Assembly (NCBI GenBank): GCA_022844135.1
Contig: JALHMG010000028.1
Location: forward strand, 12,875-76,874
DNA: 64,000 nucleotides
Direction: 5' to 3'
Source: Lysobacterales bacterium
GTDB lineage: Bacteria > Pseudomonadota > Gammaproteobacteria > Xanthomonadales > SZUA-5
A program made the translations under genes and the position numbers. The stretch's first letter is position 1. Each line of letters opens with the position of its first letter. The notes beneath the pieces are model-generated. The model was not told the DNA's origin. It searched no databases and saw only the letters and a program-made list of their open reading frames with translations. Below, in pieces: positions 13,343 to 61,787 of the stretch.

Positions 13343-14812
<1,470 letters not shown>

Positions 14813-14829
14813 TCAATTGGCTGAATCGA

Positions 14830-15221: not shown

Positions 15222-15280
15222 GTGGTCTCTCGATGCCCAACGGACGTCAATGACAACATTACCACCTCACGACGATCGAA

Positions 15281-16144
15281 CTACACTGCCGCAGCGCCAC
15301 CCACAATTTCCGAAATCTCTTGCGTAATCGCTGCCTGACGGGCTTTGTTGTACACCAGCGTCAGGTCGCCGATCAGCTTGGTGGCATTGTCTGACGCGCT
15401 CTTCATGGCAACCATGCGCGCAGCGTGCTCGCTGGCGAGATTCTCCAGCGTCGACTGGTACACCAAACTTTCGATGTAACGCGTGAGCACGTGATCCAGA
15501 ATGTCTTTGGCGTTCGGCTCGTACAGGTAATCCCACGAGTGCGTCGACTCCAGCGAATCGGACGGCGGCAGCGGTAACACCTGATCGATGGTCACCTTCT
15601 GCGTCATGGTGTTGACGAAGTGGTTGTAGGCCAGGAACAAGCGATCGGCGCGACCCGACATGTAATTGTCGAGGATGACTTTGATTGCTCCGATCAGCTG
15701 CGAGACCTGCGGCTTCTCGCCAAGATGCGTCACCGACCCCTCAAAGTTGACCTTGAGGCGTTTGAAAAACGCGGTGGCCTTCTGGCCGATACAAACCACA
15801 TCGATCTCAACGCCTTTCTGTTGCCACTCGCGGAACTCGCCGAGCAGACGACGGAACAAATTAGCGTTCAAGCCACCGCACAAACCGCGGTCGGTGGAGA
15901 CAATGATGTAGCCGACGTGCGAGATCTCTTTGCGCTCGACCAGGAACGGATGCTGATAGTCGGTGTTGGCTTTAGCGATGTGGCCGATCATCTGCCGCAT
16001 CAGCCGCGCGTACGGGCGCGAAGCCTTCATCAAGTCCTGAGCGCGGCGAATCTTGCTCGCCGACACCATCTCGAGCGCGCGCGTCACCTTGCGGGTGTTC
16101 TGCACGCTCTTGATCTTGGTTCGAATTTCTCTTGCGCCGGCCAT
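15281..16144 (-). CDS. atpG: ATP synthase F1 gamma subunit
   Basis: [36 protein letters not shown] is the canonical gamma-subunit N-terminus. Confidence 0.95.
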
Positions 16145-16276
16145 TCGTTTGCTCGCTTCGCTCGCACAGTCTCAGAAGTAACGGGTCACGCGCCCAGGGC
16201 GCGCCAAGCAGCCAGTGGCTCGGGATTCGATGCTGTTTTCCCAATGACCATTGACTACTTCCTATTTACCGCTTCT

Positions 16277-17824
16277 CTACCAGCTCCCGGTCTTCTTGAA
16301 CTCCGCAATGCCCTTCTTGAAGGCGCCTTCCAGCTCGTCGTTCCAGTCGCCCGTGGTGTCGATCTTAGTCATCACATCGGCGTAGTTGCTGCGCATGTGC
16401 TTGTGCAGCGCCTTTTCGAACGGCTGAATCTTCGCCAGCGGCAGATCGTCCATGAAGCCCTTATCGACGGCGTACAGCGACAGACCCATATCGGCAACGC
16501 TCATCGGGGCGTACTGCTTCTGCTTCATGAGTTCCGTCACGCGTTGACCGCGTTCCAACTGCGCACGCGTGGCCGCGTCGAGGTCGGACGCGAACTGAGC
16601 GAAAGCCGCCAGTTCGCGGTACTGCGCCAGCGCCAGACGAATACCGCCGCCGAGCTTCTTGATGATCTTGGTTTGTGCTGCACCACCGACGCGCGACACC
16701 GAGATACCGGCGTTCATCGCGGGGCGGATACCCGCGTTGAACAAATCGGTTTCCAAGAAGATCTGGCCGTCGGTGATGGAGATCACGTTGGTCGGCACGA
16801 ACGCCGAGACGTCGCCGGCTTGCGTTTCGATGATCGGCAGCGCGGTCAGCGATCCCGTCCTGCCTTTCACAGCGCCGCCGGTGAACTTCTCGACGTACTC
16901 CGGATTGACGCGCGCGGCGCGTTCCAAAAGGCGCGAGTGCAAATAGAACACATCGCCCGGATAGGCTTCGCGGCCCGGCGGGCGGCGCAGCAACAGCGAG
17001 ATCTGGCGATACGCCCAGGCCTGCTTGGTCAAGTCGTCGTAAATGATCAGCGCGTCTTCGCCGCGGTCGCGGAAGTACTCGCCCATTGCGCAACCGGCAT
17101 AGGCGGCGACGTACTGCATCGCGGCCGACTCGGACGCAGAAGCGGCGACGATGATGGTGTGCGCCAGCGCGCCGTTCTCATCGAGCTTGCGCACCACGTT
17201 CGCGATCGAGCTCTGCTTCTGGCCGATAGCGACGTAGATACACTTAATGCCGCTGCCCTTCTGATTGATGATGGTGTCGACCGCCAGCGCGGTCTTGCCG
17301 GTCTGACGATCGCCAATGATCAGCTCGCGCTGACCTCGGCCGACAGGCACCATCGCGTCGACCGATTTGTAGCCGGTTTGCACGGGCTGGGCAACGGATT
17401 GACGCCAGATCACGCCTGGCGCCACTTTCTCGATGGGACTCGACAACTTGGCGTTCAGCGGTCCCTTGCCATCGATCGGCGCACCGAGCGCGTTCACGAC
17501 TCGCCCCAGCAACTCAGGACCCACCGGCACTTCCAGAATGCGACCCGTGGTTTTGACGGCATCGCCCTCGCGCAAGTGCTCATAGTCGCCGAGCACCACG
17601 GCGCCGACCGAGTCGCGCTCCAGGTTCAGCGCCAAAGCGAACGTGTCGCCCGGCATTTCGATCATCTCGCCCTGCATCACATCGGCGAGGCCATGGATGC
17701 GCACGATGCCGTCGGACACCGAAACAATGGTGCCTTCGTTGCGCGCTTCGGCGGCCGATTGAAATTTCTCAATCCGCGACTTGATCAGATCGCTGATCTC
17801 GGAGGGATTCAGTTGCGTCTGCAT
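16277..17824 (-). CDS. atpA: ATP synthase F1 alpha subunit
   Basis: [21 protein letters not shown]... and GDRQTGKTA (Walker A); 515 aa. Confidence 0.95.
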
Positions 17825-18029
17825 GGCATTTGTCCAAAGTTCTAATTTGTCGTTGGGAACAACGCCAACACAGTAATTGCAGCGCTGTGCCGTCGCACCC
17901 AGTGAAAAGTGAAAAGTGAAAAGTCAACGGAAATGGGCGCCTTGGCAGGTGCCGAGCCCTGGTCTGACTTTTGACCTTCCACCTTGTTCGAGCGGCGGAA
18001 GGACTGACGTCCAGCCGCCGCCGTCCAGC

Positions 18030-18560
18030 TCACATCAATTCCGCTCGAAGCCGCTTCAATTTGCCGCGCACCGAGCCGTCGATCACAACGTCCCCGGCCT
18101 CGACCACAGCGCCGCCGAGCAGCTCCGGATCGATGGACAGTTCGAGATCGATGGCACGGTTGAACCGCTTGGCCAAGGCGCCGACCAGCTGCTGCTGTTG
18201 CATAGGCTCAATCGCCATTGCAGCGCGAACGCGAACCTGCAGTCGCTTTTCATCGTCGGCACGAAGCTTCTCGAACAGCGAGGCGACTTCCGCGAGCAGC
18301 GACAACCGCTGATTGGATTCCAGCATCGCCAGGAACCGGCCGAAACTGGAACTTGCGTTATCGCCTTCGCTAAGGAACAGCGAAATACGATCGGCCGCTT
18401 GCAGCTTCGGGCTACCCAGCAAATCGTGCACCGCCGACTGATCGGCCACCTGGGCGGCGAAGCCCAAGCGAGCGGACCACTGCGCCTGCGCGCCTTCGTT
18501 TTTGGCTAACTCGAAGGCAGCCCGTGCGTACGGCCGTGCGAGGGTCGTTGCATTGCTCAT
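18030..18560 (-). CDS. atpH: ATP synthase F1 delta subunit
   Basis: MSNATTLARPYARAAFELAKNEG... is typical of the delta subunit (OSCP). There is a 4-nt overlap with atpF. Confidence 0.9.
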   Translation of the reverse strand: MSNATTLARPYARAAFELAKNEGAQAQWSARLGFAAQVADQSAVHDLLGSPKLQAADRISLFLSEGDNASSSFGRFLAMLESNQRLSLLAEVASLFEKLRADDEKRLQVRVRAAMAIEPMQQQQLVGALAKRFNRAIDLELSIDPELLGGAVVEAGDVVIDGSVRGKLKRLRAELM

Positions 18561-19033
18561 CGCGCGATCTCGGCGATCAAATCGTCGAGCAGCGCCTTGT
18601 GCGCGGCCGCGTCGATCTCTTTGCGAATCAGCTTCTCGGCACCCTTGACCGCCAACTCAGCCACCTGCGTGCGCAACGCTTCACGCGCACGGTGGGCTTC
18701 GGTTTCGATCTCGGCAACCGCAACCGCTTTCTGGCGATTACCTTCGGCAATCGCATCGGTCTTGGCTTTTTCGACAATCTGACCGTACTCCTTCTCGGCC
18801 CGATCGCGAATACCAGAAGCCTCAGCTCGCGCCTCGCGCAACACCTGATCTTGCTGCGAAGACGCCGATGCCAGCGCGCGCTTGCCTTCTTCGGCTGCCG
18901 CCAGTCCGTCACCGATTTTCTTCTGACGTTCTTCGATCGCACCGATGATGTGCGGCCAGCCGAACTTCATGACCAGCCAGGCGACCGCGAAGAACGCGAG
19001 TCCCTGGATGACCAAGGTCACATTAATGTTCAT
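18557..19033 (-). CDS. atpF: ATP synthase Fo subunit b
   Basis: N-terminal transmembrane helix MNINVTLVIQGLAFFAVAWLVMKFGWP followed by a long charged coiled-coil. Confidence 0.9.
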   Translation of the reverse strand: MNINVTLVIQGLAFFAVAWLVMKFGWPHIIGAIEERQKKIGDGLAAAEEGKRALASASSQQDQVLREARAEASGIRDRAEKEYGQIVEKAKTDAIAEGNRQKAVAVAEIETEAHRAREALRTQVAELAVKGAEKLIRKEIDAAAHKALLDDLIAEIAR

Positions 19034-19093
19034 GCGTCTCTCTCCGCTCTATGTCGCGCCGAAACCGGCACGACGCCCGCAACGAAAGGCAGA

Positions 19094-19381
<288 letters not shown>

Positions 19382-19532
19382 TTAGCTTGGTTCTTGGTTC
19401 TTGGTGTTGGTCCTTGGCTGGGCCTACGACGAACGCCGTCAGCTCATCCAAAAAACCGCTCTTTCTTACTTCTGTGAACTTGGGCCCTGATATCGGCTAT
19501 TTCCAGCAACCAACAACCAGGAACCATCAACC

Positions 19533-20739
<1,207 letters not shown>

Positions 20740-22108: not shown

Positions 22109-22525
22109 CTACTGTTTCCCGCGCACGGTGGCAATCGATAAGTTTCGGAAGCCCAACTGCGCGAGCGCATCCATCGCCGTAACAACCGACTGATGCTCGG
22201 CACGCGCGTCGGCGCGGAGCACGACGGCTTTGCTGCCCGGATCTGCGCCCACTTGCAAGATCGCCGCCTTCAGCGTTTCGATCTTGGGATTAATCACTTC
22301 GTTGTTATTGACGAAGTAACGGCCTTCAGCATCGATCTGGATCATGAGCGGCTGCGCCTGATCGCTTTTCAGATCCGACGATGCTTCGGGCAACTCCACC
22401 TTAATGCGCGAGTTCTGATCGAAGGTGGCGGTGGCCATGAAAAAAATAAGCAACACCAGGATCACGTCGATCAACGGGATCACGGTGATCTCGATGTCGT
22501 CGTTGTCCTCGCTGGTGAACTTCAT
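22109..22525 (-). CDS. exbD: Biopolymer transport protein ExbD/TolR
   Basis: ...ITVIPLIDVILVLLIFFM... is the ExbD/TolR signature; 138 aa; 4-nt overlap with exbB. Confidence 0.85.
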   Translation of the reverse strand: MKFTSEDNDDIEITVIPLIDVILVLLIFFMATATFDQNSRIKVELPEASSDLKSDQAQPLMIQIDAEGRYFVNNNEVINPKIETLKAAILQVGADPGSKAVVLRADARAEHQSVVTAMDALAQLGFRNLSIATVRGKQ

Positions 22526-23175
22526 CGCGCGGCTCGCTGCGGGGCCGGCGCCGGCACGGGCGAGGCGACAGGATCGGGCGCCTCAAGGCTATCCATCAAC
22601 AGGTTGGCTTCATGTTCCAGCGCCATCGCCAGATTCTGCACATGGCCCTTGAAATGGCGATGAAAGAAATACCCGACGCACGCCACACACAAGCCTGCGG
22701 CAGTCGCAACCAGCGCCTCACCGATGCCCCCCGCCAACGCGTTGGCATCGCCAATTCCGGCTGTGGTGATCACCAGGAACATGCGGATCAAACCGCTCAC
22801 GGTTCCCAGCAATCCCAGGAGCGGCGAGATGATCGCGATCGTGCCGAGCGTGTTCAAATACCGCGACAGACGATGCACGACCTGGCGACCTGTGGCCTGC
22901 ACCTTGTCGCTGATCACATCGCGCGAGCGCTGCCGGTTCGCGACTACCGTGGCCAGCACAGCGCCCAGCGGCGAGTTCTGGCGCAACTTGTCGAGATGGT
23001 CTTTCTCGATCTTCGCCGTGCGCGCCCACTGGCGTACTTCGGCACCTAGTTTAGGCGGCACAACACTGGACATGCGCAGCGACCAGAAGCGCTCCAGAAT
23101 GATGCCGATCATCACCACCGATGCCAGCACCAGCGGGATCATGATGAACCCGCCAGTCTTCAAGATTTCAAACAC
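22522..23175 (-). CDS. exbB: MotA/TolQ/ExbB proton channel family protein
   Basis: 217 aa with three transmembrane helices and conserved MotA/TolQ/ExbB C-terminal motifs. Confidence 0.85.
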   Translation of the reverse strand: MFEILKTGGFIMIPLVLASVVMIGIILERFWSLRMSSVVPPKLGAEVRQWARTAKIEKDHLDKLRQNSPLGAVLATVVANRQRSRDVISDKVQATGRQVVHRLSRYLNTLGTIAIISPLLGLLGTVSGLIRMFLVITTAGIGDANALAGGIGEALVATAAGLCVACVGYFFHRHFKGHVQNLAMALEHEANLLMDSLEAPDPVASPVPAPAPQRAAR

Positions 23176-48084: not shown

Positions 48085-48156
48085 CCGTTGCGACGGGAGT
48101 CGAACCCGCTACTTAGTCAGTTTCAATGACTCGCTCTACCAATGAGCTACGCATGG
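48085..48156 (-). tRNA. tRNA-Phe(GAA)-like element with a defective acceptor stem (possible tRNA pseudogene or integration scar)
   Basis: The reverse complement of ~48085-48156 is CCATGCG-TA-GCTCATTGGTAGAGC-G-AGTCATTGAAACTGACT-AAGTA-GCGGGTTCGACTCCCGT-CGCAACG-G-CC. The D-arm and anticodon arm are perfect (U33, anticodon GAA, A37) and the T-arm is plausible. Only 5 of 7 acceptor pairs form and there is no encoded CCA. Confidence 0.35.
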
Positions 48157-50267: not shown

Positions 50268-51377
50268 ATGAAAGTCCGAGCCGCTGTGGCCTATCGCGCG
50301 GGCGCTCCGCTAAGCGTCGAAACCGTCGACCTCGATGGCCCACGCGCCGGAGAAGTACTGGTCGAAGTCCGCGCCACCGGCATCTGTCACACCGATGCGT
50401 ACACGCTGTCCGGCGCCGATGCCGAGGGCAAATTCCCAGCCATCCTCGGCCACGAAGGTGCCGGCGTGGTTGTCGACATCGGCGCTGGCGTCAAAAGCGT
50501 GCGCAAAGGCGATCACGTCATCCCGCTGTACACGCCCGAATGCCGCGAGTGCGAGTACTGTTTGAACCCAAAGACCAACCTCTGCCAGGCCATTCGCGGC
50601 ACGCAAGGTCAGGGGTTGATGCCCGACGGCACCAGCCGCTTCTCCATCGGCGGCGAACCGATCTACCACTACATGGGCACCTCGACCTTCGCCAACTACA
50701 TCGTGCTGCCGGAGATCGCGGTGGCGAAGATTCGCCAGGATGCGCCGTTCGAGAAGGTCTGCTACATCGGCTGCGGTGTGACCACGGGGATTGGCGCGGT
50801 GATTTACACAGCAAAAGTCGAACCCGGTTCGCGCGTGGTCGTGTTTGGCCTGGGCGGCATTGGCCTGAACGTCATCCAGGGCGCGCGCCTGGTCGGAGCC
50901 GCGCAGATCGTTGGCGTCGACATCAATCCAGCCAAACGCGCGTTGGCCGAAAAATTCGGCATGACGGATTTCGTCAATCCCAATGAGATCGACGGCGATC
51001 TCGTCGCCTATCTGGTGTCGCTTACCAAGGGCGGCGCCGATTACAGCTTCGAGTGTGTCGGCAATACGACGCTGATGCGACAGGCCCTGGAGTGTTGCCA
51101 CAAAGGTTGGGGCACCTCGGTGATCATCGGCGTGGCGGAATCGGGCAAAGAAATCAGCACCAGACCGTTCCAGCTGGTCACCGGGCGCAACTGGCGAGGC
51201 AGCGCCTTCGGCGGCGCACGCGGGCGCACCGATGTGCCGAAGATTGTCGACTGGTATATGGAAGGCCGTATCGATATCGACAGCCTGATCACGCACACGA
51301 TGCCGCTGGAGCGCATCAACGAAGGTTTCGATTTGATGCATCGCGGCGAGTCCATTCGTAGCGTGGTGCTTTACTGA
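50268..51377 (+). CDS. frmA: S-(hydroxymethyl)glutathione dehydrogenase / class III alcohol dehydrogenase
   Basis: [64 protein letters not shown]... is near-canonical AdhC/FrmA. Confidence 0.9.
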
Positions 51378-52252
51378 TGGCGATCGAGATCCTCGCCGAA
51401 CATCGCTGCCATGGTGGCGTCCAAGGTTTTTATCGCCACGAATCGAAACACTGCAACGGACCGATGCGCTTCGGGTTGTTTGCGCCGCCGAATCCACGTG
51501 GCGCGCCGCTGCTGTTCTGCCTCGCAGGCTTGACCTGCACCGAAGAAACTTTCGCCATCAAGGCCGGCGCGCAGCGGGTCGCAGCTGAGCTGGGCTTGAT
51601 GCTGCTGCAGCCCGATACCAGTCCACGCGATACCCGGATCGACGGCGCAACCGGCGATTGGACCATCGGCGAAGGCGCGAGTTTCTGGCTCGATGCGACC
51701 GCATCGCCGTGGCGCGATCGGTTTCGCATGGCCAGCTGGATCGTGCAAGAGCTGCGAGCTATTGCCGCAGAGTTCGGCGCGGATCTAACGCGCTGCGGCG
51801 TCCTTGGACACTCGATGGGCGGCCACGGTGCGTTGACTCTGGGACTGAAACACCCAGATGTATTCCGCAGCATCTCCGCCTTCGCACCGATCGTGGCGCC
51901 AACGCAGGTACCCTGGGGACAGCATGCCCTGCCCCGCTACTTGGGCGACGATCCCAGCGCCTGGGACCAGCACGACGCCTGCGCCCTGCTCCAAGCCGGA
52001 CATCGCGGTCCACCGCTGCTTATCGATCAAGGTCGGAACGATAAGTTTCTGGCCGACCAGCTACAACCGGAGCGACTACAAGTCGCCTGCGATGCCATTG
52101 GCCAGCCGCTAAACCTGCGTTACCACGACGGCTACGACCACGGTTACTTCTTCATCCAGAGCTTCATCGACGATCACTTACGGTTTCATGCGCAGGTGCT
52201 GGCGGCTGACTCGGCACAGTTGGCCTCCGCAGAGACTCCTCATCGACGGTAG
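51377..52252 (+). CDS. frmB: S-formylglutathione hydrolase (esterase D)
   Basis: ...GHSMGGHGALTLGLKHPDVFRSISAFAPI... is the serine hydrolase motif. Immediately downstream of frmA. Confidence 0.9.
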   Translation: MAIEILAEHRCHGGVQGFYRHESKHCNGPMRFGLFAPPNPRGAPLLFCLAGLTCTEETFAIKAGAQRVAAELGLMLLQPDTSPRDTRIDGATGDWTIGEGASFWLDATASPWRDRFRMASWIVQELRAIAAEFGADLTRCGVLGHSMGGHGALTLGLKHPDVFRSISAFAPIVAPTQVPWGQHALPRYLGDDPSAWDQHDACALLQAGHRGPPLLIDQGRNDKFLADQLQPERLQVACDAIGQPLNLRYHDGYDHGYFFIQSFIDDHLRFHAQVLAADSAQLASAETPHRR

Positions 52253-53418
52253 TCCACCGTCAGCCAGATCTTGTCCAGATCCGTTCCGAAACGGTCGGCG
52301 CGGTAGCGCGCTAGTTTGCCGGAGAGCGTCCACTGCGTACCGACAGGGCGTACATACTGCATGCCGATTTCGTCGCCATAGTCGATATCGCCACGGTCTG
52401 ACCGAAACTCGTGCCATCGAGCGCTCAAGATGCCGCCGCCGAGCTTGCCCGACACCTCAAACATCATGTCTCGAAGTCCATCGCGCGGAGTCGTGAGGAA
52501 GCGGTCGGCCCAGCCGTTGAATGCATGCAGCGTAGCAAGCGGCGTCTGGAAACCATAACGGCCATTGCCGCCCAGGCGCTCGAAAAGCACGCGCAATGCG
52601 AATGCGCCGTCTTTGAAGTTCAACGTGTTGTCGATGGCGTAGTAACCCACATCGATATCGCTGCTGCCGCGGGCAATGTCGTCCTGCTGCGCAGCCTCGA
52701 CGACGTACAGCCATTTCCAGGTGTCGCGACTGAGAGCGGCACCGCTGAAACGCAAACCGAGATTGCGATGGCTGCTGAGCGGCACATCTTGATTCTCGAT
52801 GGCATACAAGTACGCGACCGCCTGGTGACCGCCGTACAGGTATGCGAGATTGATCAGGTAGGTATCGAGGTCTTGCTGACGCAACAGCGGATTGGGATTG
52901 TAGTTGCCGAAGATCCGGTGCACTTCGTCGACGTAGGCGGCGCGCACGGTGAGGGCGCCGGCCGTGTGCTGCACGCTGAGCGCGTCGTAAGTTTGCTCGT
53001 TCTGGCGAAAGCCGACGCTGCCTACAAAGCGCTGATTGTCGTAGTTCAAGCGTTGGCGACCGAGAATCCACTGCGAAGGCGTTCCGAATCCGTAGGCCAC
53101 GTACGCCTGATTGATCTCCTCGCCAGCCGGGTCGGGGATGGCCGGGCGGGTGCGCTCGTTGTTGATCGTGCTGTTGTAACTGTTGCGATCGGCGGCGACG
53201 ATAATGTCGGCCTCGGCGAACGCGGTGAACCCTCGCCATGCATCGGTCCGCAGCCCCAGACGTCCGCGCAAAGTCAGCGCATCGCTATCGTCCCGGAACG
53301 CGTCATCGGACACGCTTTCGTACCGCAGTCGATAGTCCTGCGTGACCTGCCACGCGCCGACATCGTGTGCGAAGGCGGACGCCAGAAGGGCCAGACCGCA
53401 AATGCGCTTTCCAGACAT
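52240..53418 (-). CDS. Alginate-export (AlgE-like) family outer-membrane beta-barrel protein
   Basis: 392 aa with a signal peptide and an alternating beta-strand pattern. It has Alginate_exp-like motifs (...YRLRYESVSDDAFRDDSDALTLRGRLGL...). Confidence 0.65.
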   Translation of the reverse strand: MSGKRICGLALLASAFAHDVGAWQVTQDYRLRYESVSDDAFRDDSDALTLRGRLGLRTDAWRGFTAFAEADIIVAADRNSYNSTINNERTRPAIPDPAGEEINQAYVAYGFGTPSQWILGRQRLNYDNQRFVGSVGFRQNEQTYDALSVQHTAGALTVRAAYVDEVHRIFGNYNPNPLLRQQDLDTYLINLAYLYGGHQAVAYLYAIENQDVPLSSHRNLGLRFSGAALSRDTWKWLYVVEAAQQDDIARGSSDIDVGYYAIDNTLNFKDGAFALRVLFERLGGNGRYGFQTPLATLHAFNGWADRFLTTPRDGLRDMMFEVSGKLGGGILSARWHEFRSDRGDIDYGDEIGMQYVRPVGTQWTLSGKLARYRADRFGTDLDKIWLTVDYRR

Positions 53419-53563
53419 GGGAACACCTCCGTCGAGAATTCAACAACCACCCGTTTCGCCCGTCGCACGCTGCTGCGAACGACGGGCGATGTGTATGACC
53501 TGCGTCAAGCAGGCAATCTATTCCGATGTGGCGGAAGGCGCGCCGCGCGAGTACTGCCGCGCG

Positions 53564-54016
53564 TCAATCGAGGTTTTCGATCACCACAATGACGCTCGCC
53601 CGATATCCCTTCCAGACCACCGGCAGCGCGTAGGATTTGATTCCCTTGGGCAAATGCAGCGCGTCCTGCCCATAGATCAATGTCGGCACTGAGATCATGA
53701 AATCGTTGCCGAAGTGATTGCGCGCGTTACCAGAAATGGTGTTGGCCACGTCGCCGACCAGATCGAGCATGTTCTCCCGCGTCATGTTCTGCTCGCCGAC
53801 CTCTTTCATCAGCAGCATCAACAGGGCGCGGTCGGCCGTGAAGTACACGGTGCCGCGATGGCGACCAGAAATACCGATGGCGCCGGTAAATTCGCCGGCC
53901 ACCGATCGGGCGTCGTCGATGAGGTAGGGTGAGCCGACCTCGGCTTTGCTACCGACCGTCTCGACGAAATAGCGCGTCGCGCCGTCCAGGAAAACTTTGA
54001 TCTGACCTGCGTCCAC
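53564..54016 (-). CDS. cheX: CheX-family chemotaxis phosphatase (150 aa; GTG start, preceded by an AGGAG ribosome-binding site)
   Basis: The C-terminal 150 aa of the 297-aa track ORF, ...GEFTGAIGISGRHRGTVYFTADRALLMLLMKEV...ENMLDLVGDVANTISGNARNHFG..., matches the CheX/CheC-like pattern. Confidence 0.7.
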   Translation of the reverse strand: MDAGQIKVFLDGATRYFVETVGSKAEVGSPYLIDDARSVAGEFTGAIGISGRHRGTVYFTADRALLMLLMKEVGEQNMTRENMLDLVGDVANTISGNARNHFGNDFMISVPTLIYGQDALHLPKGIKSYALPVVWKGYRASVIVVIENLD

Positions 54017-54024
54017 AGAATCTC

Positions 54025-54429
54025 CTACTTGAGCAACTCGGACAGCGCACGATTCAACGAGGCGTCGTTGAAAGGCTTGCCAAGAAATCCATGGGCGCCT
54101 GCGTGCAATGCCTGCAAGACCATGCTCTGATCGTTCATCGCGCTGACCACCAGGATCAATAAATTCGGATTGATCTTGAGGATCTGCTTTACGCACTCGA
54201 TGCCGTCCATCTCGGGCATCGTGATGTCCATAGTCACGACATCGGGCTTGAGGTCGCGCGCCATCGCAAGTGCTTGCACTCCATTGGCGGCAGCGCCGAC
54301 CACTTCGATTTGCGCGTGGTGTTGGCCGCGCTCGATGCGACCACGAATGATGTTGGAATCGTCGACGATCAGCATCCGATACACTTTCGGCGCAGCGGTC
54401 GTTTTGCCTTCGCGCGAAAAGAAGCTCAT
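54025..54429 (-). CDS. cheY: CheY-like single-domain response regulator
   Basis: ...MLIVDDSNIIRGRIE...VVTMDITMPEMDGIECVKQIL...; 134 aa; 4-nt overlap with the upstream kinase gene. Confidence 0.85.
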   Translation of the reverse strand: MSFFSREGKTTAAPKVYRMLIVDDSNIIRGRIERGQHHAQIEVVGAAANGVQALAMARDLKPDVVTMDITMPEMDGIECVKQILKINPNLLILVVSAMNDQSMVLQALHAGAHGFLGKPFNDASLNRALSELLK

Positions 54430-56519
54430 ACCGATGCACCCGTAAAGCTCGGCACACTAATCGTGAATCTCGAACCTTGACCTGGCCGAGTGCCGATGGC
54501 TACCCGGCCGCCGATGCGCGCGATCGACTGTTCGACCACATCCAGCCCAACGCCACGACCACCGTCTTCGGAAACATCGTCCTTGGTCGTGAAGCCGGAC
54601 GTAAACAGCAATCGCGCCAGCTCTCTGGGCGCCATGGCAGCAGCCTTTTCGCGCGTAGCCATGCCCAGTTGTACGGCTTTGGCGCGGACTCGATCAAGGT
54701 CGATACCGCGACCGTCGTCCTCCACCGCAAGTTCGACGCCGCCGTTCGCCGCCTGCTTCACCGACAGCACAACGCGCCCGACTGCAGGCTTACCCTCCGC
54801 CGTACGATCGTGCGGCGGTTCGATGCCGTGAACGATGGCGTTGCGCACCAACTGCACCAACGCGTCGGATAACTCGTGATAAGCCGTTTCGGGTATCTCG
54901 ACATCGGCGCTGGCGTTGACGCTGAACTCGACGCGCTTCTGTTCGCGCTCCGCCACCCTGCGCGCGATCAGCTCGGCCTTGTTCCACACCGGCGCGAGCC
55001 GACGGGCGGGACGACCGCTGTCCAACGATCGGCGCACCTGGCTGAGTCTCTCGACCATCTCACGGACGCCTTCCAGCTGCTGATACATCTCGCGCAGCGA
55101 TACGGTCAACGGCAGCAAATCGCCGCCGGCGAGGCTGTCCTGACCACGCAGCTTGGAAATCTGATCTTCGATCTGATGCGCCCAGCTTTCGATAGGTTCG
55201 AAATCGAGCGCAGCAGCATCGCCCTTGATGGTGTGCGCAATCCGGTACACCTGCGCGAGCTTGCTCATGGTGCCTTGGCGCGATGTTCCGCCCGTGGCGA
55301 GAATGGAGTTCATCTCATCAAGTCCACGGTTCATTTTGTCGATGAACTCGACCAGCTCGTCGTTGCCCAGATGCATCATCTTGGTCAGCAGCGTGATTTG
55401 CTGCTCGCCGCGACGTCGCGCGCGATCCAGCTCTTGGCGAAGTTCGACTTCGGATGTCACGTCTGCCGCCGACACCAGCAAGTGCGAGAGGTTTCCGTCA
55501 GTGAGCACGCGTCGGAATTGAAAGGCCAGGTAGCGCGTCGCGATACGGCCGTCCTCCGTGGGCGTGGAGACTTCAACCTCCTTCAGCGGATTGACCTCGC
55601 CCATCAACGACTCTTTGACGCGTTCGCCGAATAGCAAGTCCAGGAACGAACGCGCCGTCGCTTGCGTCTTCTCCGGCACCATGCGCGCCAGCACGTCCAT
55701 CAAATTGCGCCCAGCGGTGCCCTTGACACCCAGGATCTGCTCAAGCGACTTTGACTGTTGCTGGCCGATATTGAGCTCGCGATCGACCAGAAACAGACCA
55801 TCGTTGACAGTGTTCAGGATGTTGTCGGTCTCAGCTTTCGCGGCGACCAGCTCAGCGTCTGCCCGACGTAAATTGCGCAGCGAGAAAAACACCACGTATG
55901 CGAACAATGTGAGCGCGACGGCGATGGCCGTCAACTGAATCACGCGCAGTGTGGCGGCGCGCTGCTGCGATTGCTGCTCGAGCGCGGTGGTCAGCGAATT
56001 CATCAACTGCAGAATCTTGACGTTGTTGACTCGCGCATACACCGCGAGATTGGCCAATGAGGCTTCGATGCGATCCGGCGTCGTGGCTTCAAAGAACTCA
56101 TCCAGCAGTTTCTGGTAACCCTCCCACAAATTGACGCCGTCGCTGATCGAATCCAAACCGACCTGGGCCTTGGCGAGATACACTGGCTTGCCGTCGCCGC
56201 CAGTCACTTCGCCGCCATTGCGAAATCCCGTGAGCGTGGTATCGAACAGTTTCACCGCTCCACGCAGCTCTTCGACCGCCGCTGATCGCTCGGTGTCGTC
56301 CTTCGCCTGCTGGATCAAAAAAATGGACTTCGCGATGCGCTGCGAGAGCATGCGTTGCCGACCGGAAAGATTGACGCTGACCGCGTCTTGATCGACACGC
56401 GTGGCGAGATAAAAGTTAAGGCCGGCGACCGTTGCGATGACGAGCAGGAACAGCGTCAGCGCAACGAACAGACCGCGGTATTTGGTTGAACCCTTCATGC
56501 GGGTTGTCCTCTTGAACAC
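54426..56519 (-). CDS. Membrane-bound CheA-like histidine kinase. A PilJ/NarX-type (NIT-like) periplasmic sensor sits between two transmembrane helices, followed by a cytoplasmic linker, an HPt domain and a CheA-type dimerisation/HATPase domain. It has no P2 or CheW-like P5 domain.
   Basis: NLSGRQRMLSQRIAKSIFLIQQ is the PilJ/NarX N-terminal sensor hallmark. The HPt motif is QVYRIAHTIKGDAAALDF. The CheA N-box HELSDALVQLVRNAIVHGIE and G-boxes GRGIDLD...GRGVGLDVV...GQGSRFTISVP follow. The protein ends right after the HATPase domain. Confidence 0.7.
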   Translation of the reverse strand: MFKRTTRMKGSTKYRGLFVALTLFLLVIATVAGLNFYLATRVDQDAVSVNLSGRQRMLSQRIAKSIFLIQQAKDDTERSAAVEELRGAVKLFDTTLTGFRNGGEVTGGDGKPVYLAKAQVGLDSISDGVNLWEGYQKLLDEFFEATTPDRIEASLANLAVYARVNNVKILQLMNSLTTALEQQSQQRAATLRVIQLTAIAVALTLFAYVVFFSLRNLRRADAELVAAKAETDNILNTVNDGLFLVDRELNIGQQQSKSLEQILGVKGTAGRNLMDVLARMVPEKTQATARSFLDLLFGERVKESLMGEVNPLKEVEVSTPTEDGRIATRYLAFQFRRVLTDGNLSHLLVSAADVTSEVELRQELDRARRRGEQQITLLTKMMHLGNDELVEFIDKMNRGLDEMNSILATGGTSRQGTMSKLAQVYRIAHTIKGDAAALDFEPIESWAHQIEDQISKLRGQDSLAGGDLLPLTVSLREMYQQLEGVREMVERLSQVRRSLDSGRPARRLAPVWNKAELIARRVAEREQKRVEFSVNASADVEIPETAYHELSDALVQLVRNAIVHGIEPPHDRTAEGKPAVGRVVLSVKQAANGGVELAVEDDGRGIDLDRVRAKAVQLGMATREKAAAMAPRELARLLFTSGFTTKDDVSEDGGRGVGLDVVEQSIARIGGRVAIGTRPGQGSRFTISVPSFTGASV

Positions 56520-56573: not shown

Positions 56574-58925
56574 TTGTGTCAGTCTGTGACGTCAGGCAAA
56601 GGAGAACTCATCCTGATAGCGTTGTCGCTCGCGCTCTCATTGGTCTTTGCGGCGCCGCAAGAACGGCAGCGCGACCTGGAAGCGCTCGCATCGATCGCCG
56701 AGCGCGGCATCGAATCGACAGAATCGGTCGCGAACCGGCTGATAGCGGAATCGAGCGCATCGAGCGACGTCGAGACTGGCGTTCGCGCTCGGCTGCATCT
56801 GCTGCGTCATTACCGATTGCAGGGCCGATGGAGCGAAATTGCGCAGTTAAGTGCGGAGACCGTCGCTCTCGCCGAAGCGGCGGGCTTGGACGTGCTGGCG
56901 GCCAAAGCCAGGCTGGCTCGGGTCAGCGCCCTGTTGCAACTGGAGCAAGCCGTCGAGGCGCAAACCGTTGCGCTCGATGTCTTGGCAGCGGGCGAGCGCC
57001 TGAACGATACGTCGCTGCAAGCGCTGGCGCGGCTCAACCTGTCGTCGATTGCCGGTCGCGGAGGCGACGTCGAGTCGGCGCGGCGGCACATCGAAGCCGG
57101 GCTGGCACTGGCCATTGGCGAACCAGAAATTCAGATCCGCTTGTTATTGAACAAGACGCTGGTCGGTCAGGCCAGCGGCGACCGCGAGATGGCCAGCGCG
57201 GCGCTGTCGAAAGCGCTCTCAATCCAGTTGCCCGACCCTATTCCGGAGTTGGAACAAACTTTGTTGCTGGCAAGACTGAGCGTACTGGTCGACGATCCGC
57301 GAGCGGCAGCAGATCTGGCAAAGACGGTCGCCGCCGAGGCGCGCAGCATCGGCAATTCCTTTCTGGCAGCGTTTGCCGATGCCGCTCGCGCGAAACGACT
57401 ATGTGCGCTCGGCGACACCGCCGAGGCGCTCGAACTCTTCGACGCCGCTTTGGCCTTTTATGAGCAATCCGACATCGCGGTCGAACAAGCGAAAGTATTG
57501 GACAGCAAGGCCATCTGTCTCAAAACCGCCGGACAGCTCGACGCCGCATTCGAGGCCCTGTCGGCGGCGCGGAACAAAGAGCGACAGGCGAACGAACGTC
57601 AGCGAAGCGAAGTGATCGCTTCGCTGAATGCGGCGCGCCGCGAAAGCGAACTGGCGACAACGATCGCCGAGAAAGAACAGCGTGTGCGGTCTTTGCAAAC
57701 CGAAGCCATCGCCAAGCAACGCAATGTGCTGCTCTGGGCGCTGGCGGCGGTCGTCGCCATTTCGCTGGCGACGCTGGTCGCGTTGCGTGCACGCAGTACC
57801 GCCGTGCGCGCCGCGGCATTGCAGGGCCTGCAGGAAGCGCGTTCGGACATGCTCGCTGTTGCTGGGCACGAAATTCGCAACCCGATTCAGGGCTTGATGG
57901 GCGCCCTGACAGCGCTCTTGCACGAAGAAATCGACCCGCACCGGCGGCAACTGCTGACCAACGCGCACCGCGCGGTTCAGACCATCGCGCGCATCAGCAA
58001 CGATGCGTTCGACTTATCGCTGATGGACAAAGGGCAATTCCAGCTGTTCAAGCGTCCCACGCGCCTGCTCGATGTTCTGCGCTCCGCGTGCGATTGGGTT
58101 TCGCCCGCGGCACAAGCCAAGGGATTGAACATCGAGTTGCAATATGCGGACGAAGCGGCAGATGTGGAAGCCGACATCGACGCCGATCGCATTTCTCAAG
58201 TGGTTCTGAATCTGCTGACCAACGCAGTGCGCTATTCGCACGCCGGTACCATTCGGATCGAAAGCGCCATTCTCGGCGACCGTTGGCGAGTCGCGGTGAT
58301 CGATCACGGACCAGGCATTAACGAAACCGAGTTGCCGCGCTTGTTCGATGCCTATTTCCGCGGCGCCAGCGCCACGCAAACCCAAGGCGGCGGTCTGGGA
58401 CTGAGCGTCGCTCAACGCATCGTCGCCGCTCACCATGGCGAGATTTTGGCGAGCAATCGACCCGACGGCGGCGCGGAATTTGCGTTCTGGATTCCGCTTG
58501 CCAGCAGCGTCGAACGCCCAGCGCCGGCGCAGGCATCGTCGCTGCGTCCGCTTGAGGGTCTGCGTCTTCTGGTCATCGACGACGATGAGCTCGTTCGTCT
58601 GGCTGTGCGCGTCAATGCAGAAATTGCTGGCGCCATCGTCCAGGACCTGGGCGACGGTTCGCGGCTGATCAAGACCATTCGCGAATTCGATCCCGATATC
58701 GTGCTGAGCGACAAACAACTCGAGGCCGAAGACGGGATTGAACTGCTGCGCAACATCCGTGCCGCATTTCCCGGACCGCGCCCACGACTGGCGTTGATGA
58801 CCGGCTCGGTACGAACACAAACCTTAGAAGGTCCTGTCGAACGCATACTGCACAAGCCATTCTCGAGCGCGGCTTTTGTGGAAGCCATGGCGGAACTGCG
58901 CAACAGTCCGAACGCTTCGGCCTGA
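56574..58925 (+). CDS. Hybrid sensor histidine kinase (N-terminal TPR-like helical sensor region, transmembrane helix, HisKA, HATPase_c, C-terminal receiver)
   Basis: H-box LAVAGHEIRNPIQGLMGAL, ATPase motifs (...LLTNAVRYS..., GGGLGLSVAQRIV), and C-terminal REC (LRLLVIDDDELVR...IVLSDKQLEAEDGIELLRNIR). Confidence 0.8.
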   Translation: MCQSVTSGKGELILIALSLALSLVFAAPQERQRDLEALASIAERGIESTESVANRLIAESSASSDVETGVRARLHLLRHYRLQGRWSEIAQLSAETVALAEAAGLDVLAAKARLARVSALLQLEQAVEAQTVALDVLAAGERLNDTSLQALARLNLSSIAGRGGDVESARRHIEAGLALAIGEPEIQIRLLLNKTLVGQASGDREMASAALSKALSIQLPDPIPELEQTLLLARLSVLVDDPRAAADLAKTVAAEARSIGNSFLAAFADAARAKRLCALGDTAEALELFDAALAFYEQSDIAVEQAKVLDSKAICLKTAGQLDAAFEALSAARNKERQANERQRSEVIASLNAARRESELATTIAEKEQRVRSLQTEAIAKQRNVLLWALAAVVAISLATLVALRARSTAVRAAALQGLQEARSDMLAVAGHEIRNPIQGLMGALTALLHEEIDPHRRQLLTNAHRAVQTIARISNDAFDLSLMDKGQFQLFKRPTRLLDVLRSACDWVSPAAQAKGLNIELQYADEAADVEADIDADRISQVVLNLLTNAVRYSHAGTIRIESAILGDRWRVAVIDHGPGINETELPRLFDAYFRGASATQTQGGGLGLSVAQRIVAAHHGEILASNRPDGGAEFAFWIPLASSVERPAPAQASSLRPLEGLRLLVIDDDELVRLAVRVNAEIAGAIVQDLGDGSRLIKTIREFDPDIVLSDKQLEAEDGIELLRNIRAAFPGPRPRLALMTGSVRTQTLEGPVERILHKPFSSAAFVEAMAELRNSPNASA

Positions 58926-59061: not shown

Positions 59062-59772
59062 ATGGCTAGCTCCACTGGCGCCCCGATCTGCCTGATCCTG
59101 ACGGCAGCTCTCGCCGGCGCTCCCCTGCCCGCCTGCGAATACTGGCAATTGGCGGGACCCTTCACGTTGCAGCAGTCGAATCGAATCACAGTCCACGGCG
59201 AACTGACCCAGACAGGTCGCCGCCTGAGCGGTCGCGCCAGCTTTTACTCGCCAACCCTGGGCGACGGCGGAACTACGTTGGCCGGCGACATCGACGGGCA
59301 TATCGAGGGCGATGCGATTGAACTCGATGTCTACTGGTACGGAAACTACGAGCAGTGTGCCGGCGAGTGTTACGCAAGCAGTTACGACGCTGGTGCGCGC
59401 TACCAGGGACGTATCGATCCCGACGGGCGCATCTCGGGTGTCAACTTCGAATTTGACCGACCACAAGCGCAGGTGCGCTGGACGCTGGCAGGCGCTGTGC
59501 AATGCGGCAATCCGCCGCCGTCCATGGCCGATCGCGTGCGCGAAACGGGCCCGATCGCCCCGTTGGACGCGAACGGCGCCATGACCCACGAGAGCGGCGG
59601 CTTCGCGCCGCGCGATGTCGGCGCTGCGAAAGTGATGGAGACCGAGGGTTTCGCCAGGTCGGATACAGATAACGCCGCGTCTCGCAACCTGCGCTCTGTA
59701 CAACCCTCGGTGCAGCGCAGATCGTTGCAACCGAGGCAGCTCCGCCATGCGCTGAGGGAGGAATTGCCGTGA
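59062..59772 (+). CDS. Hypothetical secreted protein
   Basis: 236 aa with an N-terminal signal-like sequence. There is a 4-nt overlap with the downstream gene. Confidence 0.45.
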   Translation: MASSTGAPICLILTAALAGAPLPACEYWQLAGPFTLQQSNRITVHGELTQTGRRLSGRASFYSPTLGDGGTTLAGDIDGHIEGDAIELDVYWYGNYEQCAGECYASSYDAGARYQGRIDPDGRISGVNFEFDRPQAQVRWTLAGAVQCGNPPPSMADRVRETGPIAPLDANGAMTHESGGFAPRDVGAAKVMETEGFARSDTDNAASRNLRSVQPSVQRRSLQPRQLRHALREELP

Positions 59773-61787
59773 TCGACATCATGCAAACGCTGCGCATCGG
59801 CATCGCATCGATCGCGCTTGCGGCGACCAGCGTCGCCACGGCCAATCCCTACAAGGATCCCGACCCGGAGAAGGTCAAGAAACTGCTGATCGAGTACTTG
59901 AAAAAAGGCGGCCCTGCGGCAGCGGGCAATGCCTCGGACAGCAAACAGATCGCCGACGCCGGCATCGACCTCGTGGTTGGCCTCGCCGATCTTGGATTCC
60001 CCGGAATTGGACTGGTACTCGGACCATTGAAAGGCCTGCTCAAATCGCCATCGCAAACCGTGCCGGCGATCGTCGAACAACGCCTGGGACGGCTGGAGCG
60101 AAACGTGTCGTCTTTGTATGCGGAGATGGCTGAAGTGCAACGTGGGTTGGCGGACAACAGCAATCTCGACCGTCTCACCGAAATTCGCCGCAACCTGCTG
60201 CAAATGAAGAATCTGGCCGCCGACTTGCCCACTCTGCCGTCGTCCTCGGCCGAAGCGCGACGCGCGCACCTGGACAAGGCACTCAACGAAATGGACGCGT
60301 TCTTGCCGCTGGATTCGGTCGGAGAATCCCTTTGGACATGGGACGCTGTGCGTATCAAATCGGCGCCCGGCCAGGACCAGCCCGACATCGAGAGCACGGT
60401 GCACGATCAAATCGACATTGCACTCGATGCTTACATCCAGGCGCTTTCGCTCCTGGTCGCCACACGCGATGCCGTGTCCGCAGCGATGACCTCGCAGCAG
60501 CGATCTCGAATTTTGCGCCACAGCGCGTTCCTGATCGGCGACGAGGCGCAAGTCGGCGCCTACGGCCTGCCGTACTCGCTGAAAATCAGGAGCACACCAG
60601 CGGTTTGCGGATTCACCGCCAGCTCGATCGGCGCCGGTCGCTGCGCCTACACAATATCGTGCAGAAACCCATTTGCGACCCGCTCCGATGTGATTGAAGA
60701 ACCCAATCATGGCGGCTCCTGCCTGATGTTGTCGGGCAACCTGTACGACAGCGTCGCCCAGGCATTGACGCAGGAACTGGATGAGCTTCCCAATCCTCTG
60801 AGTGAACTGCTGACCCTGGCCGCCAACAGGCTCGGTGGCGGCCCGTCCAATCCTCCAACCGGTAGCTTCGACGCCAGTACGCGCTTGGAAGATCAATCGC
60901 TGTTCGTGCTCCGGGACGATGGTCGGCTTGAGAGCTACATGCACACGGTCGCGACGCAAGACTTGCGGCGAGCGCCGCGACCCGCACCTGCGCCGGATTG
61001 CAGCGGCGTGGCAGCGCATCTCAGCGAAGCCTGCCAACCACCGCTCGCACGGCTACTGGTGCGCGAGGAAATCAAGCATTCGCTATCGAACGCTCACCAC
61101 GTCGTTGGCGACTGGCGCGGCCTCGATCCGTTGATGGCGGGTCCTTTGCGCCACAACTCCTTCGTTCTTTATGCCATCGACGACGGCGGCCTGCTGCAAC
61201 GCCGTCGCATCGACACGCCCACGACAGGACCGATGCGCCAACTGGATACGCCGAAAACCGTTGGCCATGGGTGGTTGCGCGGACCGCGCGTGTTCTCCGG
61301 CGGCGAAGGTGTGCTTTACAGCGTCGCGCCTGACGGAAAACTGCTTTGGTACAAACATGTCAATGCCAACGATGGCAATGCCTTCCCAGTTTTCGAATCG
61401 AAGTCCGTGGGCCGAGGATGGGGAGATGTGGTCCGCATCTGGTCGCCGGGCATGGGAATCATCTACGCGGTTAAACCCGACGGCACGCTGCTGTGGTTCT
61501 ATCACCGCCGCTGGCGCGACGGCGGCGGTCTGGCATTGCCCGATGCGTGGGAAGGTCCGAAGATCGTCGGCAGCGGTTGGCAGGACTTCAAGCTGATCGC
61601 AGGCGCCGCGAATGGTCTGGTGTATGCGTTGGAAAACAGTGGGCGATTGCTGGTGTATCGGCATCTGGGATGGCAAAGCGGCAGCAGCGAATGGCGCGAT
61701 CCGGTCGTCGTCGCCGAGGGCTGGACAGATGTTCGAAGCTTGAGCACTACCGTCTCCGAGCCCAGCGCCGCCATAGACGTTGATTAA
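59769..61787 (+). CDS. Secreted protein with a C-terminal tachylectin-2-like beta-propeller repeat region (putative lectin); the N-terminal ~400 aa are novel
   Basis: Signal peptide MIDIMQTLRIGIASIALAATSVATA. The C-terminus has ~47-aa repeats GVLYSVAPDGKLLWYKH...GRGWGDV / GIIYAVKPDGTLLWFYH...GSGWQDF / GLVYALENSGRLLVYRH...AEGWTDV. Confidence 0.5.
   Translation: MIDIMQTLRIGIASIALAATSVATANPYKDPDPEKVKKLLIEYLKKGGPAAAGNASDSKQIADAGIDLVVGLADLGFPGIGLVLGPLKGLLKSPSQTVPAIVEQRLGRLERNVSSLYAEMAEVQRGLADNSNLDRLTEIRRNLLQMKNLAADLPTLPSSSAEARRAHLDKALNEMDAFLPLDSVGESLWTWDAVRIKSAPGQDQPDIESTVHDQIDIALDAYIQALSLLVATRDAVSAAMTSQQRSRILRHSAFLIGDEAQVGAYGLPYSLKIRSTPAVCGFTASSIGAGRCAYTISCRNPFATRSDVIEEPNHGGSCLMLSGNLYDSVAQALTQELDELPNPLSELLTLAANRLGGGPSNPPTGSFDASTRLEDQSLFVLRDDGRLESYMHTVATQDLRRAPRPAPAPDCSGVAAHLSEACQPPLARLLVREEIKHSLSNAHHVVGDWRGLDPLMAGPLRHNSFVLYAIDDGGLLQRRRIDTPTTGPMRQLDTPKTVGHGWLRGPRVFSGGEGVLYSVAPDGKLLWYKHVNANDGNAFPVFESKSVGRGWGDVVRIWSPGMGIIYAVKPDGTLLWFYHRRWRDGGGLALPDAWEGPKIVGSGWQDFKLIAGAANGLVYALENSGRLLVYRHLGWQSGSSEWRDPVVVAEGWTDVRSLSTTVSEPSAAIDVD

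Follow-up and report, generated by a model that had tools for sequence, protein, structure and literature searches.

Three consecutive minus-strand genes in a 64,000-nucleotide stretch of a Lysobacterales bacterium (GenBank assembly GCA_022844135.1, contig JALHMG010000028.1, positions 12,875 to 76,874; hereafter the window) encode a transmembrane kinase, a CheY-like receiver, and a CheX-family phosphatase. We put at about 60% the probability that they form a self-contained, receptor-independent relay of the CheA class, in which a kinase that is probably gated by nitrate signals to CheY and CheX resets the response. Textbooks use CheA to exemplify a kinase that is unable to sense alone and depends on its P5 domain, on CheW, and on receptor arrays. 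The window kinase keeps the P1 and P4 domains of CheA and has no P2, no P5, and no recognizable P3. It carries a periplasmic sensor of its own, and the genes for the receiver and the phosphatase follow it in nearly every genome in which we found it.

A CheA-class kinase without coupling domains

The kinase gene (positions 54426..56519, minus strand) had been assigned 697 aa in a preliminary description of the locus. That figure holds for the maximal open reading frame, which begins with a GTG at 56519. The true start is probably an ATG at 56498, which lies 8 nt past an AAGAGGA and gives a product of 690 aa, the length of homolog P0001 (83% identical to the window kinase). The motifs quoted for this protein were all recovered, namely NLSGRQRMLSQRIAK at residues 50-64, HTIKGDAAALDF with His429, and LVQLVRNAIVHGIE. 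A full-length AlphaFold2 (AF2) model, built on 24 homologs with a mean predicted local distance difference test score (pLDDT) of 82.5, arranges the chain as a first transmembrane (TM) helix, the periplasmic bundle, a second TM helix with a long extension, a PAS-like domain, a connecting helix, the HPt domain, a low-confidence linker (residues 500-512), and the ATP-binding domain.

The phosphoacceptor and catalytic domains are both of the CheA kind. The HPt (P1-like) helical bundle (55023..55364, minus strand; residues 386-499) matches Pfam Hpt over residues 390-483 (4.1e-10) and, weakly, P1 of Escherichia coli CheA (8c5v_C). Its histidine, His429 (codon 55233-55235), sits on the second HPt helix in the AF2 model. 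H429, K432, and G433, which make up the H-x-x-K-G motif, are invariant in 24 aligned sequences, and each of the 120 closest homologs has the motif, as expected of a phosphorylatable domain rather than a variant that has lost its acceptor. The CheA-type P4 domain (54450..54983, minus strand; residues 513-690) contains the N, G1, and G2 boxes and matches Pfam HATPase_c over residues 552-690 (1.7e-17), with the C-terminus only 7 residues beyond. It aligns with P4 of Thermotoga maritima CheA at an E-value of 3e-39 and 35-39% identity, and Foldseek gives a target-normalized TM-score of approximately 0.85. The catalytic residues of the N box (N560, H564, and G565), the G1 box (D601, D602, G603, and G605), and the G2 box (G654, G656, and G658) are invariant across the 24 sequences.

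The domains that connect a canonical CheA to its receptors are missing. Across the 24 family members (the window kinase and 23 homologs), Pfam detected no CheW/P5, P2, P3 (H-kinase_dim), or HAMP domain at E<=1. The same scan readily found H-kinase_dim (1.4e-11) and CheW (7.7e-37) in a positive control, the canonical CheA of locus L038. Pfam also gave no match to HisKA, MCPsignal, CheB, or CheR in the window kinase. The absence of P2 and of a CheW-like P5, as first described, therefore stands, in a protein that ends right after its HATPase match. The claim of a "P3/P4 core" fared less well: P4 is clearly of the CheA type, but neither Pfam nor the AF2 model reveals a P3 dimerization domain. The model shows no two-helix P3 hairpin, and HPt leads straight into a helix and the linker to P4. 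Only that helix before P4 (residues 482-510) aligns with the second helix of P3, and the NCBIfam CheA models cover just their P3-P4 part in the window kinase, far under their whole-protein cut-offs. Dimerization presumably relies instead on the sensor, the TM helices, and the PAS-like region.

Between the second TM helix and HPt, the AF2 model contains a PAS-like α/β domain (55458..55802, minus strand; residues 240-354) made of two strands, four helices, and three strands. Pfam does not recognize it and returns only stray weak PAS matches. In a Foldseek search with the whole model, PAS/LOV histidine kinases do align, in a list of matches dominated by P4 and by generic PAS kinases. This domain is the signature of the kinase class. 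When 1.84 billion representatives were searched with a profile of residues 216-385, 699 matched at E<=1e-30 and 1320 at E<=1e-10. Almost without exception they are 690-760 aa long with the domain at the same position, which puts the class at about 700-1300 clusters at 50% identity.

The kinase, CheY, and CheX form a conserved unit

The second gene (54025..54429, minus strand) encodes a CheY-like single-domain receiver of 134 aa (Pfam Response_reg, 3.8e-27). The pocket residues D23, D24, D68, S96, and K118 are conserved across about 30 homologs, and F115 is also present. Its best relatives in the PDB are CheY proteins of the Thermotoga type (1tmy, 3e-29). It has no output domain and is not DNA-binding. 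The third gene (53564..54016, minus strand) encodes a CheX-family phosphatase of 150 aa, with a Pfam CheX match of 6e-18 (65 bits against a cut-off of 27) and PDB matches to CheX and CheC-like proteins. Its active site reads D85-x3-D89-x2-N92.

The layout agrees with what had been described for the locus, the open reading frames forming four consecutive minus-strand genes with a porin gene in the last place. The ATG of the receiver gene overlaps the TGA of the kinase gene as ATGA, the 4-nt overlap noted before, which suggests that the two are translationally coupled. The cheX gene does start with a GTG, 6 nt past the AGGAG reported as its ribosome-binding site. Promoter and terminator scans of the locus gave nothing exceeding the shuffled background.

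The kinase has at least 402 homologs by protein search; the best 120, which were listed, all contain PilJ and HATPase_c, and most also contain Hpt. To see how the genes travel, we scanned one genome per species and obtained 31 loci with full-length homologs. The carriers include Gammaproteobacteria (Cellvibrio, Zhongshania, Spongiibacteraceae, Arenicella, Cocleimonas, Competibacteraceae, Moraxellaceae, and Parathalassolituus), Betaproteobacteria (Methylotenera, Polaromonas, Rhodoferax, Thiobacillus, Azoarcus, and Chitinivorax), and one genome each of the Cyclobacteriaceae (Bacteroidota) and the Verrucomicrobiales. Named strains and species among them are Methylotenera mobilis JLW8 (CP001672.1, with the module at about 2.005-2.008 Mb), Polaromonas sp. 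P2-4, and Parathalassolituus penaei. CheY and then CheX come immediately after the kinase, in the same orientation, in 29-30 of the 31 loci; the exceptions fall at a contig end or in a frame-disrupted stretch. Five further metagenome or genome loci annotated with Pfam show the same order in every case. Given the domain E-values and a synteny kept in more than 30 genomes, chance is ruled out for the three-gene unit.

The locus had also been described as free of chemoreceptor and coupling genes. Indeed, no gene for a methyl-accepting chemotaxis protein (MCP), CheW, CheR, or CheB lies within about 10 kb of the module in the window, or within 8-10 kb in the five annotated relatives. The absence of CheW, the intact HPt histidine, and the co-conservation of cheY and cheX with the kinase all support the streamlined sensor-kinase-CheY-CheX circuit originally proposed.

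The sensor is the part of this unit that varies. The nitrate-type motif discussed below, the N-box, is kept in 43 of the 111 full-length class representatives listed; in the other 68, the homologous box has degenerated and the key arginine is gone. One protein, P0338, has three PAS domains in place of the periplasmic sensor. Downstream of an N-box-less representative that could be placed on a contig, there is likewise a receiver gene and after it one for a CheX homolog (45% identity). The conserved unit therefore consists of sensor, PAS-like domain, HPt, and P4 together with CheY and CheX, with the nitrate-type sensor as one of several inputs that have diversified on a constant PAS-like/HPt/P4 core. 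Representatives of about 520-550 aa at first looked like a sensor-less variant. They start at a conserved internal Met173 and are probably truncated gene calls, and we set them aside.

Past cheX, only a porin gene recurs; the other neighbors are unrelated and include a transposase, PqqE, MsrA, and an epimerase. At locus L086, a porin homolog stands beside a Reg_prop/GGDEF gene like the one at L081, and the kinase, cheY, and cheX are absent, which suggests that the three-gene unit behaves as an insertable or deletable cassette. Farther away in the window (61853-63619, minus strand), an ABCB-type exporter with fused ABC_membrane and ABC_tran domains is 48% identical to the product of the gene just upstream of the kinase in three Cellvibrio loci (L002, L004, and L009). 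This likeness may be a remnant of shared synteny.

The periplasmic sensor carries a putative nitrate-binding motif

The sensor lies between two TM helices. The first (56400..56471, minus strand; residues ~17-40) is the hydrophobic stretch LFVALTLFLLVIATVAGLNFYLAT, which falls within a model helix spanning residues 10-71. The second (55878..55940, minus strand; residues ~194-214) runs on as a cytoplasmic helix to residue 239, within a single AF2 helix of residues 148-239. Enclosed by them is a PilJ-type four-helix bundle with a β-hairpin (55944..56399, minus strand; residues 41-192), recognized by Pfam and by AF2. The sensor had been called NIT/PilJ-N-type; Pfam reports PilJ (residues 38-106, 8.7e-14) and does not report NIT. 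Modeled as a domain, the sensor is a four-helix bundle with a pLDDT of 95.5.

A sensor profile searched against the PDB placed McpN's ligand-binding domain (LBD) first (6gcv, 4e-7), with PilJ behind at 5e-3. Foldseek, run with the sensor domain alone, returned only generic periplasmic four-helix-bundle sensors with weak E-values; NarQ ranked 16th and McpN was not in the top 50. The fold by itself thus does not discriminate between ligands.

In McpN, the PilJ-type domain was solved with nitrate bound at the dimer interface, and R61 is essential (PMC6381276). The N-box, [IVL]-[ND]-x-A-G-x-Q-R-M-L-[ST]-Q, separates nitrate-binding PilJ domains from non-binders, among them PilJ itself, which does not bind nitrate despite having the same fold (PMC6381276). 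In the window kinase, the corresponding putative nitrate-binding motif (56340..56375, minus strand) reads V49-N-L-S-G-R-Q-R-M-L-S-Q60. It fits the McpN pattern at 11 of 12 positions, with Arg56 as the equivalent of R61 and a serine for the alanine at position 4, a position that is not among the contacts listed for McpN (PMC6381276). N50, G53, R54, R56, M57, L58, S59, and Q60 do not vary across the 24 aligned sequences. All 120 of the closest homologs keep a relaxed N-box, 47 in its strict form with alanine and 73 with serine. By this measure, the sensor motif appears to be under strong purifying selection.

Nitrate genes recur beside the module

Gene neighborhoods offer a second line of evidence for the ligand. 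Nitrate or cyanate genes (nrtA/B/D, narK, nasT, or cynS) lie within 7 kb of the module in 9 of the 31 genome loci. The permease and the ATPase of the nitrate ABC transporter pass NCBIfam equivalog or subfamily cut-offs, ntrB with 255 bits against 209 and ntrCD with 321 bits against 292, and the neighbors also include a NarK-family transporter, cyanase, and ANTAR-type, NasT-like regulators. In Polaromonas and Rhodoferax, the module sits inside a nitrate-assimilation cluster in the order nasT, nrtABD, kinase-cheY-cheX, narK, and a Ser/Thr kinase gene. Thiobacillus, Arenicella, and Spongiibacteraceae show other layouts. Because the arrangements differ between these groups (the Comamonadaceae and the three just named), they represent at least four independent juxtapositions. 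By our own rough estimate, a single-copy cluster would fall by chance into a 14-kb flank in much less than 1% of genomes. Taking motif and neighborhoods together, we consider the odds that nitrate is the ligand of this sensor to be slightly better than even.

A related sensor was seen at locus L032, where positions 5131-6213 encode a 360-aa protein whose PilJ domain has a perfect N-box. The protein also has two TM helices, and its C-terminal region belongs to no Pfam family. It may be another nitrate or cyanate sensor.

A porin is a recurrent partner of N-box sensors

Downstream of cheX lies a gene for an outer-membrane porin of the Alginate_exp family (52240..53418, minus strand; 392 aa). Both the family and the distance of 145 bp agree with the preliminary description. 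The match, 30.9 bits against a cut-off of 25.2, covers only model positions 7-131, the N-terminal third, and homologs at L026 (61 bits) and L065 (214 bits) match the model over its full length. The porin gene follows cheX on the same strand at L081 (10 nt spacing), L082, L083, L084, and L026 (Cyclobacteriaceae), and it adjoins the module on the opposite strand or upstream at L001, L003, and L011. Most module loci have no porin.

Porin genes also accompany other N-box proteins. At L032, the order is nasT, nrtA, cynS, nrtB, nrtD, the 360-aa N-box protein, and the porin; at L001, the porin stands between an N-box protein and the nrt/cynS genes; and at L065, a kinase with PilJ, PAS, HisKA, and HATPase domains and a regulator precede it. 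The N-box PilJ sensors that the porin adjoins thus come in three distinct architectures. Its repeated appearance beside the module and other such sensors makes it a regular partner, not a chance neighbor.

No genes for polysaccharide synthesis or export (alg8/44/K/X-like) were found beside the porins, either in the window or in its relatives. This suggests a small-anion channel that would feed a periplasmic sensor and a transporter rather than an alginate exporter, and the porin may be an outer-membrane channel for nitrate or other small anions. Such a channel is not mentioned in a review of nitrate sensors (PMC8199190). At L084 (complete genome CP171822.1), a gene for a PilZ-domain protein (11670-12050; 23.9 bits against a cut-off of 22.5) stands between cheX and the porin gene, which hints at a link between cyclic di-GMP and the output.

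The stretch of 145 nt that separates cheX from the porin gene (53419..53563, minus strand) is predicted to fold unusually well as RNA. Its predicted fold has an energy of -69.9 kcal/mol (z = -3.8), none of 200 shuffled sequences folds as well, and it holds a perfect 9-bp stem, CGCCCGTCG...CGACGGGCG. The spacer contains no terminator-like U-run. Since L081, the closest relative, has no more than 10 nt at this place, the window spacer resembles an inserted element or else a site of processing or attenuation.

A proposed relay and its alternatives

In the relay that we favor, the kinase would work as a membrane dimer. The periplasmic bundle would bind a small oxyanion, most probably nitrate, at Arg56 of the N-box, and the signal would travel along the long helix of TM2 into the PAS-like domain and the further helix beyond it, a route suggested by the AF2 model. 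There it could alter the access of P4 to His429 on HPt, for which the catalytic and acceptor residues are present. From His429 the phosphoryl group would pass to Asp68 of CheY, as the conserved residues and the strict synteny suggest. CheX would then quickly strip it off, so that phosphorylated CheY (CheY-P) tracks the current ligand level. The presumably co-transcribed porin, to judge from its recurrence, probably admits the ligand to the periplasm.

What CheY-P would act on may differ between hosts. In flagellated bacteria, the flagellar switch is the leading candidate, since the Thermotoga-like CheY and the many flagellated hosts both point to it. The Cyclobacteriaceae are not known to be flagellated, and the intact module in a member of that family argues for at least one non-flagellar target of CheY. 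Without CheW, P5, MCPs, CheR, or CheB, the pathway would report the absolute ligand level with no methylation-based adaptation. The lack of CheR and CheB in particular points away from classical gradient sensing and toward a signal that is kinesis-like or switches between states.

Several observations weigh against this relay or against its nitrate input. True gradient sensing would be hard to explain with no adaptation enzymes. In CheX, the catalytic glutamate is replaced by an aspartate, Asp89 (codon 53750-53752), in the window and in L081, L082, and L083, while about 30 other homologs have glutamate; the change is conserved in a clade whose CheX is otherwise diverged and so does not resemble decay. 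The occurrence of a close porin homolog at L086, where the module is missing, means that the porin does not depend on the module. The pattern used for the genome scan, [SA]GRQRMLSQ, makes every sampled locus an N-box member by construction. The N-box itself has serine where the published pattern has alanine, and the invariant Arg54 occupies the place of the McpN contact residue Ala59, which could alter specificity. The 64-kb window holds no nitrate genes, with tblastn searches for nrtA/B/D, narK, nasT, and cynS giving only a generic ABC ATPase match, and about 60% of the loci have no nitrate-related neighbor. Finally, cynS adjoins the module at L016 and the related sensor at L032, and this adjacency makes nitrite or cyanate possible as the ligand. 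The missing nitrate neighbors, the cyanase genes, and Arg54 favor the same circuit with another input, whether nitrite, cyanate, a different oxyanion, or an unrelated periplasmic cue. PilJ sets a precedent, as it shares the fold without binding nitrate (PMC6381276), and the loss of the N-box from 68 of the 111 class representatives implies that specificity evolves readily. A non-nitrate ligand is thus plausible, but we find it the less likely option: neither the key arginine nor the rest of the box varies within the subfamily, no solved structure is closer than that of the nitrate-specific McpN-LBD, and the repeated, independently arranged adjacency to nrtABD, narK, and nasT is far above our rough expectation from chance.

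Other explanations change the circuit itself. The module could be an alternative-cellular-function chemosensory pathway that steers exopolysaccharide export via the AlgE-like porin, for which DifE/DifD/DifG of Myxococcus would be an analogue. The Alginate_exp match, the PilZ gene at L084, and the GGDEF genes that flank L081 would fit such a role. It seems very improbable to us given the partial match of the window porin, the lack of polysaccharide genes, the many loci that have no porin, and the finding of porin homologs within nrt/cynS clusters and next to a nitrate-type HisKA kinase. The kinase might instead be a conventional array CheA that uses CheW and MCPs encoded elsewhere, with its periplasmic domain as a mere anchor. 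Its P4 and CheY sequences are indeed of the typical chemotaxis type, and it was genome neighborhoods rather than whole genomes that we inspected. Yet the kinase has neither the P5 needed to bind CheW and receptors nor a P3, both of which the control CheA shows; the sensor motif appears to be strongly constrained; six annotated loci have no other che genes within about 10 kb; and the module is present in a Cyclobacteriaceae genome. We would be surprised if the array explanation were correct. Our expectation is just as low for a multistep phosphorelay in which HPt mainly receives its phosphoryl group from the hybrid histidine kinase encoded divergently from the sensor kinase (56574-58925, plus strand). 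That protein has a TPR-like N-terminus followed by HisKA, HATPase, and receiver domains, no HPt was found in it, and only a short intergenic region separates the two genes. The sensor kinase, however, has an intact catalytic domain of its own, and the upstream neighbor in relatives is a different gene: one for a GGDEF protein at L081, one for a Ser/Thr kinase at L082, and unrelated genes elsewhere. As the hybrid kinase is not conserved beside the module, we dropped it as a component of the system.

Relation to known systems

The kinase shares with canonical CheA (T. maritima and E. coli) an HPt domain with the H-x-x-K-G motif, P4, and partnership with CheY and a phosphatase of the CheC/CheX family. 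It differs in being membrane-integral, with its own periplasmic sensor and a PAS-like domain before P1, in lacking P2, a detectable P3, and P5, and in having no MCP, CheW, CheR, or CheB genes nearby. With three of the defining features of CheA (P2, P3, and P5) missing, it should not simply be filed as "CheA." Another CheA-class kinase with membrane-spanning segments is CheA1 of Azospirillum brasilense, which has an N-terminal transmembrane (TMX) domain. That domain is not known to sense ligands in the periplasm, and the protein retains P1-P5 and acts together with CheW and MCPs.

On the sensory side, the kinase resembles McpN (PA2788), the nitrate chemoreceptor of Pseudomonas aeruginosa, in its PilJ-family periplasmic bundle, its N-box, and the key arginine (PMC6381276). 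McpN is a methyl-accepting chemoreceptor that acts through CheW and CheA, whereas the window sensor is fused to the kinase, and the window N-box has serine at position 4 and an invariant arginine at the variable position x. With NarX, NarQ, and the Bacteroidetes-type nitrate/nitrite kinases, it shares a transmembrane, dimeric organization and a homologous P-box/N-box sensor (PMC8199190). Some of the Bacteroidetes nitrate-sensor kinases even have the same sensor-PAS-kinase order, as the kinase at L065 does (PMC8199190). Enzymes of the NarX/NarQ type are class I kinases with a dimerization and histidine phosphotransfer (DHp)/HisKA histidine, usually with HAMP and GAF domains, and they act on the DNA-binding partners NarL and NarP. 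The window kinase uses an HPt histidine and a CheA-type P4 and pairs with CheY and CheX; with DHp, HAMP, and a NarL partner all missing, it falls outside that group. The review of nitrate-sensing kinases surveyed DHp architectures only (PMC8199190).

The closest parallel for joining receptor and kinase in one polypeptide with no CheW bridge is offered by the "methyl-accepting coiled-coil" (MAC1 and MAC2) proteins of Wuichet and Zhulin, which are described as carrying a chemoreceptor-like methyl-accepting module along with CheB/CheR domains or genes and are likewise experimentally uncharacterized (bioRxiv 10.1101/2022.05.07.491037). The window module has CheX instead, and neither the kinase nor its neighbors match MCPsignal, CheB, or CheR. 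Its CheX resembles those of Borrelia and Thermotoga in its Pfam family, its length of about 150 aa, and its single site of the D-x3-E-x2-N type. It differs in the aspartate that the window clade has for glutamate and in its setting, a module of three genes instead of a complete che operon. The parts (PilJ/N-box sensor, HPt, CheA P4, CheY, and CheX) are thus all known, and their combination is apparently undescribed: the kinase architecture appears nowhere in the full-text literature that we searched, a body from which most subscription journals are absent. A paper on HmrABCX that the search brought up turned out to be unrelated.

Other features of the window

The window also contains what we take, by eye from N-terminal sequences, to be an F1Fo ATP synthase operon and an ExbB/ExbD-like pair. 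In addition, it holds a tRNA gene found with Rfam (48085-48156, minus strand), a 672-aa protein with a Tachylectin domain, and a zinc alcohol dehydrogenase and esterase pair that, by Pfam domains only, resembles glutathione-dependent formaldehyde detoxification. Jointly, these features occupy 12772-20375, 22109-23175, and 48085-48156 on the minus strand and 50268-52252 and 59769-61787 on the plus strand.

Implications

A broader picture can be drawn from these results, which we offer tentatively and hold to be more doubtful than the relay itself. The kinases may constitute a large third chemosensory design beside receptor arrays and MAC proteins, in which one polypeptide with a TM sensor, a PAS-like domain, HPt, and P4 always comes with a dedicated CheY and CheX, across at least 700 clusters at 50% identity and several phyla. 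Its N-box branch would be a direct periplasmic nitrate gauge with a dedicated nitrate-selective porin, and the CheY of non-flagellated Bacteroidota would be aimed at something different from the motor.

Current database labels ("ATP-binding protein," "CheA," and "PilJ N-terminal domain-containing protein," with JGI/KEGG-style annotation giving "CheA") mask the nature of this kinase. In it, the catalytic and phosphotransfer parts of CheA appear to have been rebuilt into a ligand-gated membrane kinase that retains the fast CheY/CheX output pair. If this is right, the module would provide a minimal, array-free system for studying how phosphorylation of P1 by P4 is controlled. It would also add a probable new class of nitrate sensors, outside the reach of surveys restricted to DHp kinases, and a candidate nitrate-related outer-membrane channel. 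Its presence in bacteria without flagella raises the question of what role CheY plays there.

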